In this document: positions 25,872 to 31,028 of the stretch, one piece after another
Numbering within the stretch: position 1 is the first letter of the stretch
Layout: each line of letters begins with the position of its first letter
Assembly (NCBI GenBank): GCA_043812515.1
Contig: JBDRMC010000007.1
Coordinates: forward strand, 1-39,010
Direction: 5' to 3'
DNA from: Patescibacteria group bacterium
Lineage (GTDB): Bacteria; Patescibacteriota; Minisyncoccia; UBA10092
DNA length: 39,010 bases
Notes under the pieces: generated by a model
Database searches by the model: none
Told to the model about the DNA's origin: nothing
What the model saw: the letters and a program-made list of their open reading frames with translations, nothing else
Program-made: the position numbers and the translations under genes

Positions 25872-26636
25872 ATGAGGCAAAAAACAGCGCATCTTTTTAT
25901 TTTTCTTTTGGTTTTATTTTTTCTTTCAGTTGAGATTGCGATGGCCGAAGCGAGTATACCGGAAGTGAAGAAACTACAGGCTGAATTTGAAAAAATTGTC
26001 GGATTCAAATTAACACTGGAAGAAAATTATTTACAGTTAGTTCTAGAAGACGCTATCAGAAAAATTTTAAGCATTAAAGAAAATGGCCATTCTCAATTTT
26101 TTATTTATATTGATCGTAATCCTGAAGAGCAAGTTATTCTGGTTTGTTTTTTCGATTCAGCGCGCAAAAGTATAACCGTCATCGGCGCCGATAAAATTTC
26201 CACCGGCAATCAGAATCGGCGAGGTTATTTTATTACTCCAGTTGGTATTTTTGAGCACGCAACTAAAAATGGTGGTTATCGGGCCTTGGGTACCAAAAAC
26301 GAAAAAGGCTGGCGGGGGCTTGGCGCCAAAGACAGCCGCATTTGGGATTTTGGCTGGCAAAAAACCCACAAAAACAATCAAGAAATTGAAATCCGGCTTT
26401 TACTGCACGCCACCGATCCGATTTTTGGGGAATCAAGATTAGGCAAGGTTGATTCCAAAGGATGTATCCGCGTCTCGGGCAAACTAAATAAATTTTTAGA
26501 CCATTTTGGCTTGCTGGACCGAGAATATGAAATTAATAAAGACAAAAAATCAATTGCTTGGTTGCTAAAATCCGATCGCGAACCCTCAATATTCGCGGGC
26601 AAATATATGCTGGTAGGCGATTCGTCGAAGCGGTGA
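25872..26636 (+). CDS. L,D-transpeptidase (YkuD) family protein, secreted
   Basis: Signal peptide. Catalytic-type motif LLHATDP...LGKVDSKGCIRVS. Shine-Dalgarno AAGGAGGTGA. Confidence 0.7.
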   Translation: MRQKTAHLFIFLLVLFFLSVEIAMAEASIPEVKKLQAEFEKIVGFKLTLEENYLQLVLEDAIRKILSIKENGHSQFFIYIDRNPEEQVILVCFFDSARKSITVIGADKISTGNQNRRGYFITPVGIFEHATKNGGYRALGTKNEKGWRGLGAKDSRIWDFGWQKTHKNNQEIEIRLLLHATDPIFGESRLGKVDSKGCIRVSGKLNKFLDHFGLLDREYEINKDKKSIAWLLKSDREPSIFAGKYMLVGDSSKR

Positions 26637-26707
26637 GATCATATCAACCCGCTTTTTATTTTTATTTTACAATCCCGGCCAAATGGGGTATTGTTAAAAC
26701 GAAGTTT

Positions 26708-27271
26708 ATGAATAAAAAACTAATCACAATTATCATAGTAATTATTGCGATCGCCGCCGCTGGCGCGGTGGCATGGTGGCAACTGGCGAAAAAAGAAGCA
26801 CTGACTCCTGTTTTGAATCCTCCGGCGACAAAAGACGACCTTATCCGTCTTGATGCTCCGCGTCCGGGTCAGGTTATAAAAAGCCCGCTTGTTATTACCG
26901 GAGAAGCGCGGGGTAACTGGTTTTTTGAAGCGAGTTTTCCGGTTTTTCTGGTAAACTGGGACGGACTTATAATCGCGGAAGGCATCGCCACCGCAAAAGA
27001 TAATTGGATGACGACAGAATATGTTCCGTTTGAAGCCAAGCTTGATTTTACAATAGATAAAAACACATATAGCAACAGGGGAGCGCTGATATTAAAAAAA
27101 GACAACCCATCCGGCCTGCCTGAAAATGATAATGCGCTTGAAATCCCGATAATCTATGAGGGGATTGCGGAACCTCCCGCCACAGCTTGCACCCAAGAAG
27201 CCAAACAATGTCCCGACGGCTCCTACGTCGGCCGCACCGGCCCGAATTGCGAATTCACGCCCTGCCCGTAA
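26708..27271 (+). CDS. Signal-anchored Gmad2-like immunoglobulin-fold protein with a Cys-rich C-terminus. The ATG at 26708 is preferred over the track start at 26558.
   Basis: MNKKLITIIIVIIAIAAAG anchor. PLVITGEARGNWFFEASFPVFLVNWDG pattern. C-terminal CTQEAKQCPDGSYVGRTGPNCEFTPCP. Confidence 0.7.
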   Translation: MNKKLITIIIVIIAIAAAGAVAWWQLAKKEALTPVLNPPATKDDLIRLDAPRPGQVIKSPLVITGEARGNWFFEASFPVFLVNWDGLIIAEGIATAKDNWMTTEYVPFEAKLDFTIDKNTYSNRGALILKKDNPSGLPENDNALEIPIIYEGIAEPPATACTQEAKQCPDGSYVGRTGPNCEFTPCP

Positions 27272-27272
27272 C

Positions 27273-27304
27273 ATTTGACAAATCGCATAGAAATATGCGA
27301 TTTT
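27273..27304 (+). terminator. Terminator module, copy 2 (identical to 22228-22259)
   Basis: Same 32 bp; similarity continues for about 12 bp downstream (TTGATT.A.CAA). Confidence 0.8.
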
Positions 27305-27327
27305 TGATTAGCAAATATGGTTCTTAC

Positions 27328-27611
27328 GCAGGGAGCCAAAAAACGATGCCTCAAGGAATGCCTCAAGAGAGAAGACTTGCTTGCGCCTTGTTGATGGTGA
27401 AGTAATTCGCGTTCAGGTGGAGCGCGAAATTGGAGGATGAGTTCACCAATGGTATAGATGTCTTCCAGGAGATGTTACTTGTCGCAGTGACGGCATAACA
27501 TCGTTCCAAAGGAAAGCCAAGGTGCAAAAAAGGGCTTACCGATAAGGGGACGCCCATACCAACTTTCCTCTCCCTGCAATAAAATATTACCCCCGCTTAG
27601 CGGGGGTTTTT
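27328..27611 (+). ncRNA. Candidate structured non-coding RNA ending in an intrinsic terminator (class unknown)
   Basis: No credible ORF in any frame. Visibly more GC-rich than other intergenic DNA here. Hairpins at 27396-27447 and 27471-27502. Possible long-range pairs 27450-27455/27556-27561 and 27328-27335/27570-27577. Terminator at 27590-27611. Confidence 0.35.
27590..27611 (+). terminator. Rho-independent terminator CCCCCGC-TTA-GCGGGGG plus TTTTT
   Basis: 7-bp GC stem and T-run. The same stem-loop recurs at 31029-31043. Confidence 0.85.
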
Positions 27612-27654
27612 ATTTACAACTTTAGCCAAATTAGCTAAAGTACTTAAAACGGCT

Positions 27655-28179
27655 ATGAAAAGTAAAGAAAACAATTTTGCATACATTGATGGCGCTAACC
27701 TACATAAGGGTGTAGCAGAATTAGGTTGGAAATTGGATTATAGGCGATTTCGCGTGTGGTTACGGGATAAATACAATGTTCAAAACGCATATCTTTTCAT
27801 TGGCCTTGTTCCAGACAATAAAGATCTATATACGAGCTTGCAGGAAATGGGTTATTTGCTGGTATATAAAGAAGTAACTTATGACGGCACTGGAAAAGTA
27901 AAAGGCAATTGTGACGCCGAACTAGTGCTTAAAGTTGCTGTAGATTATTATGAAAAGCAATTTAATAAAGCGGTTATTGTGGCAAGCGATGGCGATTACG
28001 CTTGTTTGGTTAAGTTCTTGAAAGAAAAGAGCGCGTTTCTATCTTTGGTTTCTCCCAGCAACAAATGTTCTTATCTTTTAAGAAAGTTAAACATTCCTAT
28101 TGTTTATTTAGATGCGAAGAAAAGTAAGTTTGATCGACAGGTTTATAACGAAAAAGCCCCCATTAAGGACAAGCCTTAA
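27655..28179 (+). CDS. NYN-domain (LabA/PIN-like) putative ribonuclease, paralog 1
   Basis: FAYIDGANL, ELGWKLDYRRFRVWL, LFIG, KGNCDAELV, ASDGDY: NYN/LabA-type motif set. Confidence 0.8.
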   Translation: MKSKENNFAYIDGANLHKGVAELGWKLDYRRFRVWLRDKYNVQNAYLFIGLVPDNKDLYTSLQEMGYLLVYKEVTYDGTGKVKGNCDAELVLKVAVDYYEKQFNKAVIVASDGDYACLVKFLKEKSAFLSLVSPSNKCSYLLRKLNIPIVYLDAKKSKFDRQVYNEKAPIKDKP

Positions 28180-28191
28180 CAGGGTCTTTTT
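28151..28191. terminator. Bidirectional hairpin overlapping the NYN-1 stop codon
   Basis: CCCATTAAGG-ACAAG-CCTTAACAGGG stem with an A-run upstream and a T-run downstream. Confidence 0.6.
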
Positions 28192-28206
28192 CATAATGAT
28201 ATTTAC

Positions 28207-28234
28207 AGTATAGCAAGCGTTTGCTAAAAGTCAA
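28207..28234 (-). promoter_or_regulatory. Conserved minus-strand promoter-like box: TTGACT, 16-nt spacer, TATACT, pointing into the NYN-1 3' end
   Basis: Both hexamers and their flanks are conserved with 28986-29013 while 7 nt of spacer differ. Confidence 0.5.
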
Positions 28235-28274
28235 CACTTATCCACAATGATAAATTTATTAAAATTCCTAAACC

Positions 28275-28352
28275 ATGCTCTCAATTTTAATAATAATCGG
28301 GGTGGTGGTTGTGGGGATTATTGTCGCCATCATCATCAATTCCGGCGAATAA
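28275..28352 (+). CDS. 25-aa hydrophobic peptide MLSILIIIGVVVVGIIVAIIINSGE
   Basis: ATG..TAA. Paralog at 29466-29546, differing by 6 synonymous and 4 conservative substitutions. A strong terminator follows. Confidence 0.55.
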   Translation: MLSILIIIGVVVVGIIVAIIINSGE

Positions 28353-28395
28353 TAACACTCCAACATTCTGCAGAATGTGAGAATGTTATTTTTTA
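28351..28395 (+). terminator. Rho-independent terminator
   Basis: AATAACA/TGTTATT outer stem, inner 16-nt perfect palindrome ACATTCTGCAGAATGT, then TTTT. Confidence 0.8.
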
Positions 28396-28434
28396 TTCTG
28401 TAGAGAATTTGTTAAAATAAAATAAAACAAAAAC

Positions 28435-28941
28435 ATAGATACAAAAGAAAACAATTACGCATTTATAGATAGCCAAAATTTAAACCTAAGCATTCGAGAA
28501 CTTGGGTGGAAACTTGATTGGCGCCGATTTCGAGTGTATCTAAAAGAAAAGTATAACGTTACAAAAGCCTTTTTATTTATTGGTTTTGTCGAGGGCAATA
28601 ATGATCTCTATAAATCACTTCAAGATGCCGGTTTTATTTGTATTTTTAAACCAACTTTAAAATATAAAGATGGAACTACAAAGGGAAATTGTGACGCGGA
28701 GTTTGTATTGCAAGCGATGATTGAGTACCCAAATTATAGAAAAGCTGTTATGGTAACCGGAGATGGAGATTTTTATTGTCTGGCAAAATATTTAATTGAA
28801 AATAAAAAACTGGAAGTCATTGTCGTGCCCAACAGGGACAAATTTTCCGCCTTATTGAAATTCAAAATCTGCCGTCCATTTCTTCGATTTATGAATGATT
28901 TGAAGGATAAATTGGAGTATAAAAAAGAAAAGACCCTATAA
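28435..28941 (+). CDS. NYN-domain paralog 2 without a canonical start codon at the homologous position (possible pseudogene or non-canonical start). The track's GTG at 28534 would remove the N-terminal IDxxNL motif.
   Basis: The frame is open from 28426 and reads ..IDTKENNYAFIDSQNLNLSIRELGWKLDWRRFRV, aligned to the paralog 1 N-terminus. There is no in-frame ATG/GTG/TTG before 28534. ATA at 28435 sits where paralog 1 has its ATG. Confidence 0.7.
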   Translation: MDTKENNYAFIDSQNLNLSIRELGWKLDWRRFRVYLKEKYNVTKAFLFIGFVEGNNDLYKSLQDAGFICIFKPTLKYKDGTTKGNCDAEFVLQAMIEYPNYRKAVMVTGDGDFYCLAKYLIENKKLEVIVVPNRDKFSALLKFKICRPFLRFMNDLKDKLEYKKEKTL

Positions 28942-28968
28942 GGACAAAACCTTATAGGGGGATCTTTT
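28921..28968. terminator. Bidirectional hairpin overlapping the NYN-2 stop codon
   Basis: CCCTATAAGG-ACAAAA-CCTTATAGGG perfect 10-bp stem with an A-rich run upstream and TTTT downstream. Confidence 0.65.
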
Positions 28969-28985
28969 CCGTTGGTGATATTTGC

Positions 28986-29013
28986 AGTATAGCAGATATT
29001 CGCTAAAAGTCAA
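28986..29013 (-). promoter_or_regulatory. Second copy of the minus-strand TTGACT, 16-nt spacer, TATACT box
   Basis: Same geometry and same distance from the hairpin as 28207-28234. Confidence 0.5.
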
Positions 29014-29054
29014 CACTTATTCACAGGTCGGGGGTCATTATAAAAAATAAATTT

Positions 29055-29453
29055 ATGGAAAATTATAAGGGCGTAATAATTGAAGAAAGTTTAGAAAATA
29101 AAGACGTTTTAAAAGAGGTTAAGATTTTAGAAACTGAGGTTGAGCCGGTGACTAGCGAGCATGAAACTCCTTGGCTTAAACAGTGGACTTTGCATACTGT
29201 AGAAATTTCTGAAGATAATGCGGAGGCGATTGCCGAAAAAATAAGCCATGCGCTAGATAGGGGACATGGCGCTTCTTGGTATGCGGATTTTAAAAATAAT
29301 GAAACGCATTTTATAATTTTCCGCGATAAAGTTTTTAAGATAGATAGAAAAAGTAAAGAACAATACGACAAAGCGAAAGAATATGGAATTTCTTTAGGAA
29401 TTCCCGAGCATCAAGTTGATTTTCATCCGGATATTAAAGAATGGGAAAGATAA
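29055..29453 (+). CDS. Hypothetical acidic protein (132 aa)
   Basis: Clean ORF between the conserved box and the second peptide gene. No family recognised. Confidence 0.6.
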   Translation: MENYKGVIIEESLENKDVLKEVKILETEVEPVTSEHETPWLKQWTLHTVEISEDNAEAIAEKISHALDRGHGASWYADFKNNETHFIIFRDKVFKIDRKSKEQYDKAKEYGISLGIPEHQVDFHPDIKEWER

Positions 29454-29465
29454 AACCCCTAAACC

Positions 29466-29546
29466 ATGCTCTCAATTTTAATAATAATCGGGGTGGTGGT
29501 TGTTGGGGTTATTGTGGGTATAATTGTTAATTCTGGAGATAAATAA
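29466..29546 (+). CDS. 26-aa hydrophobic peptide MLSILIIIGVVVVGVIVGIIVNSGDK
   Basis: Paralog of 28275-28352. The identical upstream CCTAAACC and first 38 coding nt are shared. Confidence 0.55.
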   Translation: MLSILIIIGVVVVGVIVGIIVNSGDK

Positions 29547-29550
29547 AAGG

Positions 29551-29559
29551 TGGTATAAT
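29551..29559 (+). promoter_or_regulatory. Extended -10 TGGTATAAT
   Basis: Exact recurring motif, 36 nt upstream of the ATG at 29595. Confidence 0.45.
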
Positions 29560-29594
29560 AAACTCAAGAATGGGGATTATAATTAAAAAAATTT

Positions 29595-29798
29595 ATGAAA
29601 AAAAGCGACATGGTTAGGGGAGTGGCGGAGGCGGGGGTTTGGTATGTTTTTATATACTATTTCCTCTATGCCTTGAAAAACTCTGTAGAACTCTGGCAGG
29701 CGGCTTTGGTTCTTTTGGTCTTGGCGTATGTCGGCGTTTGGGTTTGCCCGTGGGTCCGCTACACCGACAGCTGGCGCAAAATGATGGGCGGGGAATAA
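29595..29798 (+). CDS. Small two-TM membrane protein (67 aa)
   Basis: Two hydrophobic helices rich in aromatic residues. The overlapping alternative frame 29639-29854 is less plausible. Confidence 0.5.
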   Translation: MKKSDMVRGVAEAGVWYVFIYYFLYALKNSVELWQAALVLLVLAYVGVWVCPWVRYTDSWRKMMGGE

Positions 29799-29831
29799 AG
29801 GTCGATTATAAATTATTAAATTATCATATAT

Positions 29832-30110
29832 ATGGACTCAGTAAATTCGCATAAAGTGGGTATAGTGTTTGGAGGGATGATGGCTATTGTTCATGCCGTT
29901 TGGTCGCTCATGGTTTTGTTGGGAATGGCCAAGCTGTTCATGGATTGGATTTTAGGTTTGCATTTCTTGAGTTTCCAATACAGTATTGACCCGTTTGCAT
30001 TTTTAAGCGCCTTAATGCTTGTTATTGTAGCCGGTGTATTTGGCTATATTGTAGGATATATTTTCGGCTGGCTCTGGAATTTGGCTCACCGCACATCGCA
30101 CGGCCAGTAG
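29832..30110 (+). CDS. Small three-TM membrane protein (92 aa)
   Basis: Three hydrophobic segments. Confidence 0.55.
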   Translation: MDSVNSHKVGIVFGGMMAIVHAVWSLMVLLGMAKLFMDWILGLHFLSFQYSIDPFAFLSALMLVIVAGVFGYIVGYIFGWLWNLAHRTSHGQ

Positions 30111-30133
30111 AATACTTTTCTGCAAACTCATAA

Positions 30134-30160
30134 AAATATAGGTGTCCGACACCTATATTT
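30134..30160. repeat. 27-bp palindrome, copy 2
   Basis: Identical to 22976-23002. Confidence 0.85.
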
Positions 30161-30252
30161 TATGTATTTGACTTTTTGAGTCAAAATCTCTATCCTATAA
30201 ACAGATTTGTGAGGCGGAAAAGACCTTTGACAAAGAGAGAGAGGTAGTTGAG

Positions 30253-30708
30253 ATGAGAGCAAGAACAAACAAGAGATGGGCATGGGTTTTCATTATCTTA
30301 ATTTCGGTTCTTTTCTTTTTTGGTCTAAGTCTGGTTCTAAGTCACGCCGTTGAGGGATCGGCCGATATAAATATTGTTCATGACAGCTATGCCGAAACTC
30401 AGACGTACGAAACCTTTTTTTTGGTATTTACCGAAGAACTTCTGCGGTTTATGGAAGAAAATCGCGACAAAATCTCCGGACGGCATCGGGTATTTGTAAT
30501 GGAGTTTTATAGAGTTTTTGACCCGACGGACATAATGATTTTTATATATTTGGATTTGAATATGGCGCTGAAAGAGCCTTTGTTAATTCATCGCGAAAGA
30601 GTAAGAAATTTAAATAGTTCCGAATCTGTTAAAACGTTTGCCAAGAAAACCGTTGAAAATCTTGTCCGGATTATCGGCGAAAATGGGCCGAAGAAACGCG
30701 AAATATAA
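30253..30708 (+). CDS. Signal-anchored hypothetical protein (151 aa)
   Basis: N-terminal TM helix. Shine-Dalgarno GAGAGAGGTAG. A terminator follows. Confidence 0.6.
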   Translation: MRARTNKRWAWVFIILISVLFFFGLSLVLSHAVEGSADINIVHDSYAETQTYETFFLVFTEELLRFMEENRDKISGRHRVFVMEFYRVFDPTDIMIFIYLDLNMALKEPLLIHRERVRNLNSSESVKTFAKKTVENLVRIIGENGPKKREI

Positions 30709-30713
30709 AATAT

Positions 30714-30740
30714 TCCCGGGAGAAATCTCGGGATTTTGTT
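30714..30740 (+). terminator. Rho-independent terminator with a GAAA tetraloop
   Basis: TCCCGGGA-GAAA-TCTCGGGA (8 bp, one G-T pair) followed by TTTT. Confidence 0.75.
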
Positions 30741-30745
30741 ATTTG

Positions 30746-30754
30746 TGGTACAAT
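30746..30754 (+). promoter_or_regulatory. Extended -10 TGGTACAAT
   Basis: Variant of the recurring motif, upstream of the 30804 ORF. Confidence 0.4.
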
Positions 30755-30803
30755 AAAATAAATGATGGATTGGGGATGAATGCCTGAACTGTGGAGGTGA
30801 GCC

Positions 30804-31028
30804 ATGTATAATGTTGTTTTCAGAACCAACCTAAGGTCTAGTACTTTTAATGCGGTTACTTGGGTGCCATTTATAGACAAAAAAAATTTTGATGAGCAAT
30901 ACAGCGAGAAAATGCAAAAATTACACAAGGTAATAGAGCAGAATAGTTCTAAAGAACGCGCGGTTGAACTGTGCTCAACTGCGGGTATAAATTTAGTTAT
31001 TGTGGCATACAAGTTGAGAGAACCTTAA
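30804..31028 (+). CDS. Hypothetical protein (74 aa)
   Basis: Shine-Dalgarno GGAGGTGA 4 nt upstream. A terminator follows immediately. Confidence 0.6.
   Translation: MYNVVFRTNLRSSTFNAVTWVPFIDKKNFDEQYSEKMQKLHKVIEQNSSKERAVELCSTAGINLVIVAYKLREP

Follow-up and report, generated by a model that had tools for sequence, protein, structure and literature searches.

Convergent promoters and a predicted structured RNA at the 3' ends of NYN nuclease genes in Patescibacteria

Introduction

Why should two diverged nuclease genes be followed by nearly the same short block of DNA? In the window analyzed here, that is, the whole 39-kb stretch of patescibacterial DNA, two NYN-domain genes lie in tandem on the plus strand (27655-28179 and an open frame at 28426-28941), and each is followed by a conserved box of 50 nt; positions are window coordinates unless a locus identifier is given. 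A first-pass annotation of this DNA had read the boxes as promoters convergent with the NYN genes, each driving a short RNA antisense to the end of the NYN mRNA. The comparison with homologous loci presented below identifies a real, undescribed family of structured non-coding RNAs beside NYN genes, with predicted transcription, and the small RNA probably controls the NYN nuclease.

Patescibacteria (the candidate phyla radiation, CPR) account for a large share of bacterial diversity, and regulatory RNAs are almost unexplored there; the small RNA would be among the first small-RNA families defined for this group. It is found at about 200 examined loci and its NYN partner has thousands of database homologues, so that a widespread family of NYN (LabA-like) nucleases of unknown function gains a testable regulatory partner. 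If the proposed control is true, the logic of antisense-RNA antitoxins extends from small membrane peptides to an enzyme, within a cassette of only about 650 bp. An unexpected link to DnaA is also indicated. If synthesis of the RNA is indeed wired to DnaA, the nuclease activity would be coupled to the state of replication in cells that are tiny and depend on a host.

Results

Convergent promoters downstream of the NYN genes

The two boxes, at 28197-28246 and 28976-29025, are identical at 43 of 50 positions (86%), whereas the two NYN proteins are 49% identical, and thus the boxes are far better conserved than the neighboring coding DNA. Either half of the box is found at two places in the window and nowhere else in it, against 0.00-0.01 occurrences expected. 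On the minus strand both boxes read TGTGRATAAGTG-TTGACT-16 nt-TGCTATACT-GYAAATATCA and contain the promoter TTGACT-16-TATACT, with 10 of 12 matches to the hexamers of the sigma-70-type consensus and a TG one base 5' of the -10. A site scan places the -35 hexamers (TTGACT) at 28229-28234 and 29008-29013 and the extended -10 elements (TGCTATACT) at 28207-28215 (hexamer 28207-28212) and 28986-28994, all on the minus strand; both elements of the first promoter are conserved in homologous loci. Transcription is predicted to start at an A (28200 and 28979, respectively), located 7 nt after the -10 and 8-9 nt before the base of a hairpin described below. The first-pass annotation was right about the presence and minus-strand content of the two boxes, but its distance of about 15 nt from the start to the hairpin has to be shortened accordingly. 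The block of the spacer that it described as completely different between the copies does differ, though at five of seven positions (AGCGTTT versus GATATTC on the plus strand).

The two box promoters are the best-scoring promoter-like sites within 27200-29700. At the same time, this AT-rich DNA shows no excess of promoter-like sites over shuffled sequences (11 versus 9.2 +/- 2.9), so the window alone cannot prove a promoter and the proof has to come from homologous loci. Two sets of loci were analyzed. The NYN-anchored set comprises 80 loci from species-level genomes of Patescibacteria, fetched by the NYN protein alone, and promoter features were counted in the 78 of them with enough flanking sequence. 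The second set comprises 120 metagenome loci, retrieved by a pattern that covers only the lower stem of the hairpin; 118 of these were scored for the promoter.

A hairpin followed by a convergent promoter was found 3' of NYN in all 80 NYN-anchored loci. The minus-strand -35 is TTGACA in 35 loci and TTGACT in another 35 (together 70/78), 64/78 have a spacer of 16 or 17 nt (46 and 18 loci, respectively), and the -10 is TATAAT, TATACT, TATTAT, or a relative of the TAnnnT type, preceded by TG in 51/78. The distance from the end of the -10 to the hairpin is 25-26 nt in 63/78 loci. The metagenome set behaves similarly: of its 118 scored loci, 100 have TTGAC[AT], 99 a spacer of 16-17 nt, 72 the TG, and 84 a -10 that ends 25-26 nt from the hairpin. 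Across 202 distinct elements, the information content peaks at TTGAC, TG, and T-A---T, falls to approximately zero in the spacer and the discriminator, and rises again at a conserved A exactly 7 nt after the -10. This pattern of sequence conservation is that of a sigma-70-type promoter facing NYN.

A simpler explanation of the similarity between the boxes would be a recent tandem duplication, with hexamers arising by chance in AT-rich DNA, and the absence of an excess of promoter-like matches over shuffled sequence agrees with it. However, the NYN proteins have diverged to 49% identity while the boxes remain 86% identical, and the hexamers, their spacing, and their position recur in about 200 loci of other genomes. 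On this comparative evidence, an origin by chance or by duplication only is excluded. The view of the first-pass annotation that duplication alone would not account for the boxes is thus borne out, and the conservation of the hexamers in related genomes, on which it had staked the prediction, is what both sets of loci exhibit.

A covarying hairpin and a predicted non-coding RNA

On the NYN side of the promoter lies a hairpin, which we predict to be a bidirectional terminator common to the NYN mRNA and the small RNA. Hairpin 1 (28150-28192) was identified by terminator scan, folding, consensus structure, and covariation, and hairpin 2 (28926-28970) by terminator scan and folding. Each of them is flanked by an A-tract and a T-tract, and the scan reports terminator-like sites on the minus strand for copy 1 and on both strands for copy 2. 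In homologous loci the A-tract and the T-tract are at least 90% conserved, as is the minus-strand U-tract even where it lies outside the open reading frame (ORF). The consensus of homologues predicts that the transcript from the +1 A is 5'-AUCACUACG-GAAAAAGACCCUUAUGnGG-UUYCGU-CCnCAUCGGGGGCUUUUUC-UUUU, about 55 nt long, and consists of a leader of 8-9 nt, a 44-nt hairpin, and the U-tract. Predicted small RNA 1, of about 55 nt, occupies 28143-28200 on the minus strand (5'-AUCAUUAUG, hairpin, U-tract) and was placed by a covariance model and the conserved A; its 5' end at 28200 is a prediction and its 3' end, near 28143-28149, is uncertain. Predicted small RNA 2, of about 57 nt, occupies 28919-28979 on the minus strand, with a predicted 5' end at 28979, and was placed by the covariance model and folding.

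The consensus structure computed by RNAalifold is a 17-pair hairpin with two conserved internal mismatches. As many as 98.2% of its cells are paired, and 11 of the 17 pairs have compensatory changes, so that the covariation across homologous loci proposed as a check by the first-pass annotation was found. The number of double-change cells is 162, compared with 45.6 +/- 7.4 in shuffled alignments (none of 500 shuffles was as high), and sliding the partner columns abolishes the signal. Coding constraint does not account for the conservation of the hairpin, since the NYN stop codon has no fixed place relative to it: 21 loci have the stop ahead of the hairpin, 41 within it, and 13 past it. In the window, the stop codon of copy 1 (28177-28179) sits within hairpin 1 and that of copy 2 (28939-28941) in the 5' arm of hairpin 2. 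The type-1 loci, as distinct from the type-2 paralogues considered below, have a near-invariant lower stem (GAAAAAGACCCU / GGGGGCUUUUUC), internal mismatches, 3' GU of the loop, and AU at +1/+2, while their upper stem drifts with compensation. Besides the +1 A, AYG is conserved in the leader.

Because the hairpin is palindrome-like, it had to be decided which strand carries the functional structure. G-U pairs provide the answer: 131 cells of the alignment form them on the minus strand versus 9 on the plus strand. The bias remains after removal of one near-invariant column (65 versus 9), in the upper stem alone (24 versus 8), and in the metagenome replicate (30 versus 5), which shows that the structure is selected in the predicted minus-strand transcript. 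Folding energies have the same sign, being -23.5 kcal/mol (z=-4.9) on the minus strand versus -18.1 on the plus strand for hairpin 1, and -23.0 kcal/mol (z=-5.7) versus -21.3 for hairpin 2. A covariance model built without any sequence from the window was then used to scan it. The model scored small RNA 1 at 68.3 bits on the minus strand (E=7e-15) versus 32.8 on the plus strand, and small RNA 2 at 42.3 bits (E=2.9e-8) versus 26.9, and had no further match in the window.

The hairpin could also be a mere bidirectional terminator, with a functionless RNA and a convergent promoter acting through transcription itself, as a roadblock or insulator against read-through from NYN. Indeed, the RNA contains little beyond the terminator, the arrangement of A-tract, stem, and T-tract is the classic form of a two-way terminator, and insulation could matter in the window, where nearly all genes downstream are on the same strand as NYN. 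However, terminators and insulators are not normally kept base for base across bacterial classes, and the G-U bias indicates selection on the fold of the minus-strand RNA. Neither the conserved +1 A and AYG of the leader nor the retention of the promoter in loci where NYN has been deleted, and nothing is left to insulate, fits this explanation, and we consider it unlikely.

The RNA itself is non-coding. The 28-aa ORF that the first-pass annotation had noticed in copy 1 only, preferring a non-coding role for that reason, is indeed specific to copy 1 and overruns the terminator, and its ATG is replaced by ACG in most homologues; a coding RNA was rejected on these grounds. Membership in a known family was rejected as well. 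Gathering-threshold and E-value scans against Rfam 15 produced only sub-threshold terminator-like matches (trpB, the rnk leader, and rli RNAs), the best local one being trpB RF04312 at 23 bits versus a threshold of 59, where the paired match is limited to a terminator-like stem; the sole match in the window that passes the gathering threshold is a tRNA elsewhere in it. A literature search for NYN together with Patescibacteria found nothing, nor was a description resembling the small RNA found. A YUNR U-turn motif of the loop is visible by eye in some loop variants only and is not claimed here.

Linkage of the RNA gene to NYN

The covariance model detects the hairpin RNA opposite to the NYN strand in 80/80 NYN-anchored loci. 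The same layout is found beyond the type-1 loci. Type-2 NYN paralogues, which include copy 2 of the window and copies in L013, L044, L082, L132, L153, L169, L195, and L130, are followed by hairpins with other lower-stem sequences and with the same order of elements, namely an A-tract, a stem, a loop containing GGAC, a T-tract, and the convergent -10 and -35, often with a DnaA box. Even paralogues of 27-30% identity have a hairpin followed by a convergent TTGACA-16-TATAAT, and since they keep the layout, the architecture is older than the sequence family. In one such distant paralogue (L112), the hairpin pairs on the minus strand only, by means of three G-U pairs.

Losses of the two partners are not symmetrical. 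Among the hairpin-found loci with at least 900 nt upstream, nine have no NYN match at all, and about seven further ones have only N- or C-terminal fragments of NYN left after internal deletions; for instance, the gene of L133 is similar to that of L069 but lacks approximately codons 18-165. All 16 of these loci retain the hairpin and a promoter-like site, in most cases with TTGAC[AT]. In copy 2 of the window, the NYN start codon is lost and the RNA promoter is perfect. Conversely, an intact NYN gene without the RNA gene was found in none of the 80 NYN-anchored loci. In the examined loci, therefore, deletion of NYN with retention of the RNA gene is frequent, and the reverse was not found; this asymmetry fits a dependence of the toxin/antitoxin type, which predicts such losses.

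No conserved neighbors of the NYN and RNA genes were observed, the commonest neighboring family being present in 6 of 79 loci. The cassette looks autonomous in this respect, and in the window it lies in the stretch of lowest GC. A conserved NYN 5' untranslated region able to pair with the leader of the RNA was not found, and the upstream regions are unconserved. A phage origin was considered and rejected, as a search of viral contigs with the hairpin pattern found no match.

Two loci contain an additional copy of the gene for the hairpin RNA. In L072 (L072:3599-3660), there is no NYN between the two RNA gene copies, and a type-2-like hairpin directly follows the promoter of the first module. 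In L006, the copy (L006:8-68) is at the start of the contig, and its upstream region is outside the contig.

A DnaA box beside the -35

The upstream block that the first-pass annotation had recorded as TGTGRATAA is a DnaA-box 9-mer (TTATCCACA). The consensus of DnaA boxes is TTATNCACA, and TTATCCACA is the box of highest affinity. In the window, the only perfect copy of TTATCCACA is at 28238-28246, 3 nt beyond the -35 of promoter 1, and the corresponding site of promoter 2 is a DnaA-box-like 9-mer (TTATTCACA, 29017-29025) that fits the relaxed consensus. Boxes with at most one mismatch were found within 45 nt beyond the -35 in 28 of 77 genome loci (15 of them perfect) and in 34 of 113 metagenome loci (17 perfect), at two preferred positions and orientations. 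Given a background of about 0.016 per 47 nt, this corresponds to an approximately 15-20-fold enrichment beside the promoter. The positional histogram agrees: the first 100 nt past the hairpin contain 32 boxes, compared with about 2 per 100 nt elsewhere. A cluster of the oriC type was considered and rejected, since the box is single and only adjoins the promoter. In L073 and L028, inverted pairs of boxes (TTATCCACA ... TGTGGATAA) were observed about 20-100 nt 5' of the NYN start, and the pair of L073 flanks a hairpin; from its sequence context, NYN itself may also be under DnaA boxes in some genomes.

The combination of a hairpin and a DnaA box raises the question of whether the conserved block acts as DNA, that is, as a site of mobility, recombination, or replication of a mobile NYN cassette. 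Several observations are compatible with this: the genomic context is variable, tandem copies and internal-deletion derivatives retaining the 3' end exist, the box is present, and the region in the window is low in GC. On the other hand, two hexamers at a fixed spacing with a free spacer are conserved in the manner of a promoter, and a DNA cruciform would not yield strand-asymmetric G-U pairs. Moreover, the box is single and restricted to about one third of the loci, neither terminal repeats nor target duplications were observed, and viral contigs lack the hairpin pattern. A DNA-level role is accordingly very improbable in our estimation.

NYN proteins and other features of the window

Copy 1 of NYN (27655-28179, plus strand) encodes a 174-aa protein matching PF01936 with E=4.9e-11, and copy 2 (28426-28941, plus strand), the type-2 paralogue, matches it with E=7.1e-12; the scores are 43.8 and 46.5 bits, above the gathering cutoff of 24.2. 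The residues D12, D87, D112, and D114 are invariant in 26 sequences. Homologues of copy 1 number 2994 at E<=1e-10, nearly all named ones belong to Patescibacteria, and many are 65-80% identical. Homologues on plasmids are distant (about 30% identical), alphaproteobacterial, and GC-rich. As for the role of the subfamily, NCBIfam gave no match, PADLOC gave only a weak generic NYN match, and the sole match in PDB is 2qip, a protein of unknown function.

The frame of copy 2 opens after a stop at 28423-28425. ATG, GTG, and TTG are absent ahead of the catalytic N-terminus; where copy 1 has its ATG, the alignment places ATA (28435) in copy 2. With GTG at 28534, the first of the listed starts, the protein would lack the first conserved Asp (window 28423-28540). 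Judged from the sequence, copy 2 is either a start-codon mutant or pseudogene, or else it uses a non-canonical start.

Upstream of copy 1, a strong GC-rich terminator hairpin at 27589-27607 (ACCCCCGCTTAGCGGGGGT followed by a T-run) closes a gene with a Gmad2 domain. It is followed by a promoter-like site, TTTACA-17-TAAAGT, that could drive copy 1. In many homologues (L004, L043, L057, L059, L063, L075, and L077), a TATAAT-like hexamer lies 5-8 nt ahead of the NYN ATG and there is no Shine-Dalgarno sequence, which suggests that the NYN mRNAs of these homologues are leaderless. Of these loci, L057 belongs to a carrier in cultivation, Ca. Microsyncoccus archaeolyticus PMX.50.

The part of the window at 28001-31000 has its lowest GC content (0.33 at 28001-29000 versus about 0.42 elsewhere). 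It contains NYN copy 2 and several small ORFs without a Pfam match, and has the appearance of a small island of genes that are foreign or evolve fast. A 96-nt direct repeat, 84% identical between 28260-28355 and 29451-29546, encodes in each copy a very hydrophobic peptide of 25-26 aa (MLSILIIIGVVVVG...NSGE and ...NSGDK; ORFs 28275-28352 and 29466-29546), similar to small membrane peptides, and a palindrome at 28348-28393 follows the first copy. A link of these peptide genes to the NYN modules was rejected, as the peptide is absent from 200 other loci. Directly after small-RNA promoter 2 there is a 132-aa ORF (29055-29453) without a match in Pfam, NCBIfam, or PADLOC; homologues of it lie downstream of NYN modules in two loci, next to the module in L158 (34% identity) and at a distance of about 1.6 kb in L187 (65% identity).

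Discussion

Comparative analysis of sequences establishes the promoter, the hairpin, the strand under selection, and the obligate linkage to NYN. What does the RNA do? On balance, and with modest confidence, we suggest that NYN and the convergent RNA form a self-contained two-gene cassette in which the RNA restrains NYN in the manner of a 3'-overlapping type I antitoxin. The NYN mRNA would end in a long hairpin with an A-tract, a GC stem, and a T-tract, and the sigma-70-type promoter about 25 nt beyond it would face NYN. From the conserved A (28200 or 28979), transcription would traverse the hairpin in the direction opposite to NYN and terminate in the U-tract. The resulting RNA, about 55 nt long, would be fully complementary to the hairpin that closes the NYN mRNA and, in most loci, also to its stop codon. 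We propose the subsequent steps by analogy with known antisense systems: kissing of the complementary loops of 5-6 nt (UUCCGU on the minus strand, ACGGAA on the plus strand), formation of a duplex of about 44 bp, and decay of the mRNA. The two internal mismatches would ease the opening of the stems. Once in the duplex, the NYN mRNA would become accessible to RNase III and, its protective 3' hairpin being lost, to 3' exonucleases, so that the mRNA would be destroyed, in most loci by a cut at or near the NYN stop codon. Binding of DnaA would tune the output of the RNA.

Several points weigh against such antisense control. Both ends of the small RNA are predictions. The overlap comprises only the terminator hairpin, and given the stable folds of the two RNAs (about -18 to -23 kcal/mol), pairing would have to be initiated at a loop of 5-6 nt. 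The set of loci with lost NYN was found through an intact hairpin, and hence the retention of the hairpin in this set is biased; the search pattern did not include the promoter. The orphan RNA genes could mean that the RNA has a job of its own, and a recognizable DnaA box is present in only about one third of the loci. As a soluble enzyme of 174 aa, NYN does not resemble the classical toxins of type I, and its toxicity is hypothetical. Finally, the lower stem, the GU of the loop, and the +1/+2 AU are near-invariant across NYN proteins of 55-80% identity, a constancy that antisense pairing does not need. As an antisense role leaves the lower stem, the loop end, and the 5' AU unexplained, they suggest that a protein reads the RNA.

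That protein could be NYN itself, with the RNA serving as an inhibitor of the type III kind, a decoy substrate, or a cofactor, and with complementarity to the mRNA being a by-product of the common terminator. We think this doubtful, yet it is given substantial weight because of the near-invariant lower stem, 3' GU of the loop, and 5' AU, which, like the mismatches, stay fixed while the upper stem drifts. In addition, the sequence of the lower stem shifts with the NYN subfamily, as co-evolution of RNA and protein would have it, orphan RNA genes persist without NYN in cis, and stem-loop recognition is known for the NYN-type RNase Regnase-1. Part of the invariance may, however, be imposed simply by termination in both directions, which calls for an A-tract, a GC clamp, and a T-tract. 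The layout also differs from type III systems, in which tandem RNA repeats lie upstream of the toxin on the same strand: here the RNA gene follows NYN and is encoded on the other strand, and no ToxIN-like tandem repeats 5' of NYN, or any other tandem repeats, were found in 26500-30500.

Antisense control of NYN, which we continue to favor, does not by itself assign the cassette to type I. A convergent promoter with an overlap of about 44 nt in the hairpin was found computationally in 80/80 loci, as in type I systems. The toxins of these systems, however, are hydrophobic membrane peptides of less than about 60 aa, whereas the partner here is a 174-aa PF01936 nuclease. Since the protein is not a small membrane peptide and NYN toxicity is hypothetical, the cassette is not filed as a type I member. 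More speculatively, and we would sooner doubt this than assert it, NYN and the 55-nt RNA might represent an unrecognized class of RNA-antitoxin or self-control systems across Patescibacteria, in which the RNA would be both an antisense of the mRNA and a ligand or decoy of the nuclease, with its synthesis wired to DnaA.

Comparison with known systems

In the par locus of pAD1, convergent promoters produce a toxin mRNA and a short regulatory RNA across a common bidirectional terminator (PMC7472228). The NYN cassette resembles this arrangement of the fst mRNA (RNA I) and the antitoxin RNA II, and the Fst/Ldr family in general, in having convergent transcripts with complementary 3' hairpins. It differs in that Fst is a membrane peptide of about 33 aa and NYN a 174-aa nuclease, and in that the decisive pairing in par occurs at 5' direct repeats masking the ribosome site, whereas the NYN overlap is limited to the terminator hairpin or the stop-codon region. 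We know of no DnaA box in par.

In the case of txpA/RatA, the toxin mRNA and the RNA pair through their overlapping 3' ends, and the mRNA is then degraded in an RNase III-dependent manner (PMC3531473). Like txpA/RatA and bsrG/SR4 of Bacillus subtilis, the NYN cassette would combine a toxin mRNA and an antisense RNA overlapping at their 3' ends. However, in these systems the overlap extends over about 120 nt and the antitoxin RNAs have lengths of about 180-220 nt, compared with about 44 nt and about 55 nt here, and they are narrowly distributed, prophage-borne, and encode small hydrophobic peptides, whereas the NYN cassette spans a superphylum.

The size of the predicted RNA is closer to that of the OOP RNA of phage lambda, which has a length of 77 nt and is likewise a very short, terminator-ended antisense RNA complementary to an mRNA 3' end. 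Pairing of OOP with the 3' end of the cII mRNA leads to RNase III-dependent cleavage (Krinke & Wulff 1987, 1990, as cited in PMC5869508). Unlike the NYN cassette, OOP acts within a phage circuit on the mRNA of a transcription factor and is not part of a portable gene-plus-RNA cassette.

A lead for the possibility that NYN binds the RNA comes from Regnase-1 (ZC3H12A). This NYN/PIN-like RNase recognizes stem-loops in 3' untranslated regions, including that of its own mRNA, and is thus similar to the NYN cassette in combining an NYN-type RNase with a 3' stem-loop of its own message. It differs in being eukaryotic, in acting without an antisense RNA, and in having no sequence relation to the hairpin of the NYN cassette.

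Finally, in SymE/SymR of E. coli an antisense-RNA antitoxin is paired with a larger protein that targets nucleic acids rather than with a membrane peptide. SymR differs from the RNA described here in that it overlaps symE at the 5' end and ribosome site. Moreover, the SOS response (LexA) governs the system, and SymE and NYN have unrelated folds; the two systems have in common a non-peptide partner, if NYN is read as the toxin of the cassette. Against this background, we would class the element as a variant form of cis-antisense control and as a new family of non-coding RNAs, paired with a nuclease, often accompanied by a DnaA box, and, as judged from genome comparison, widespread in Patescibacteria.

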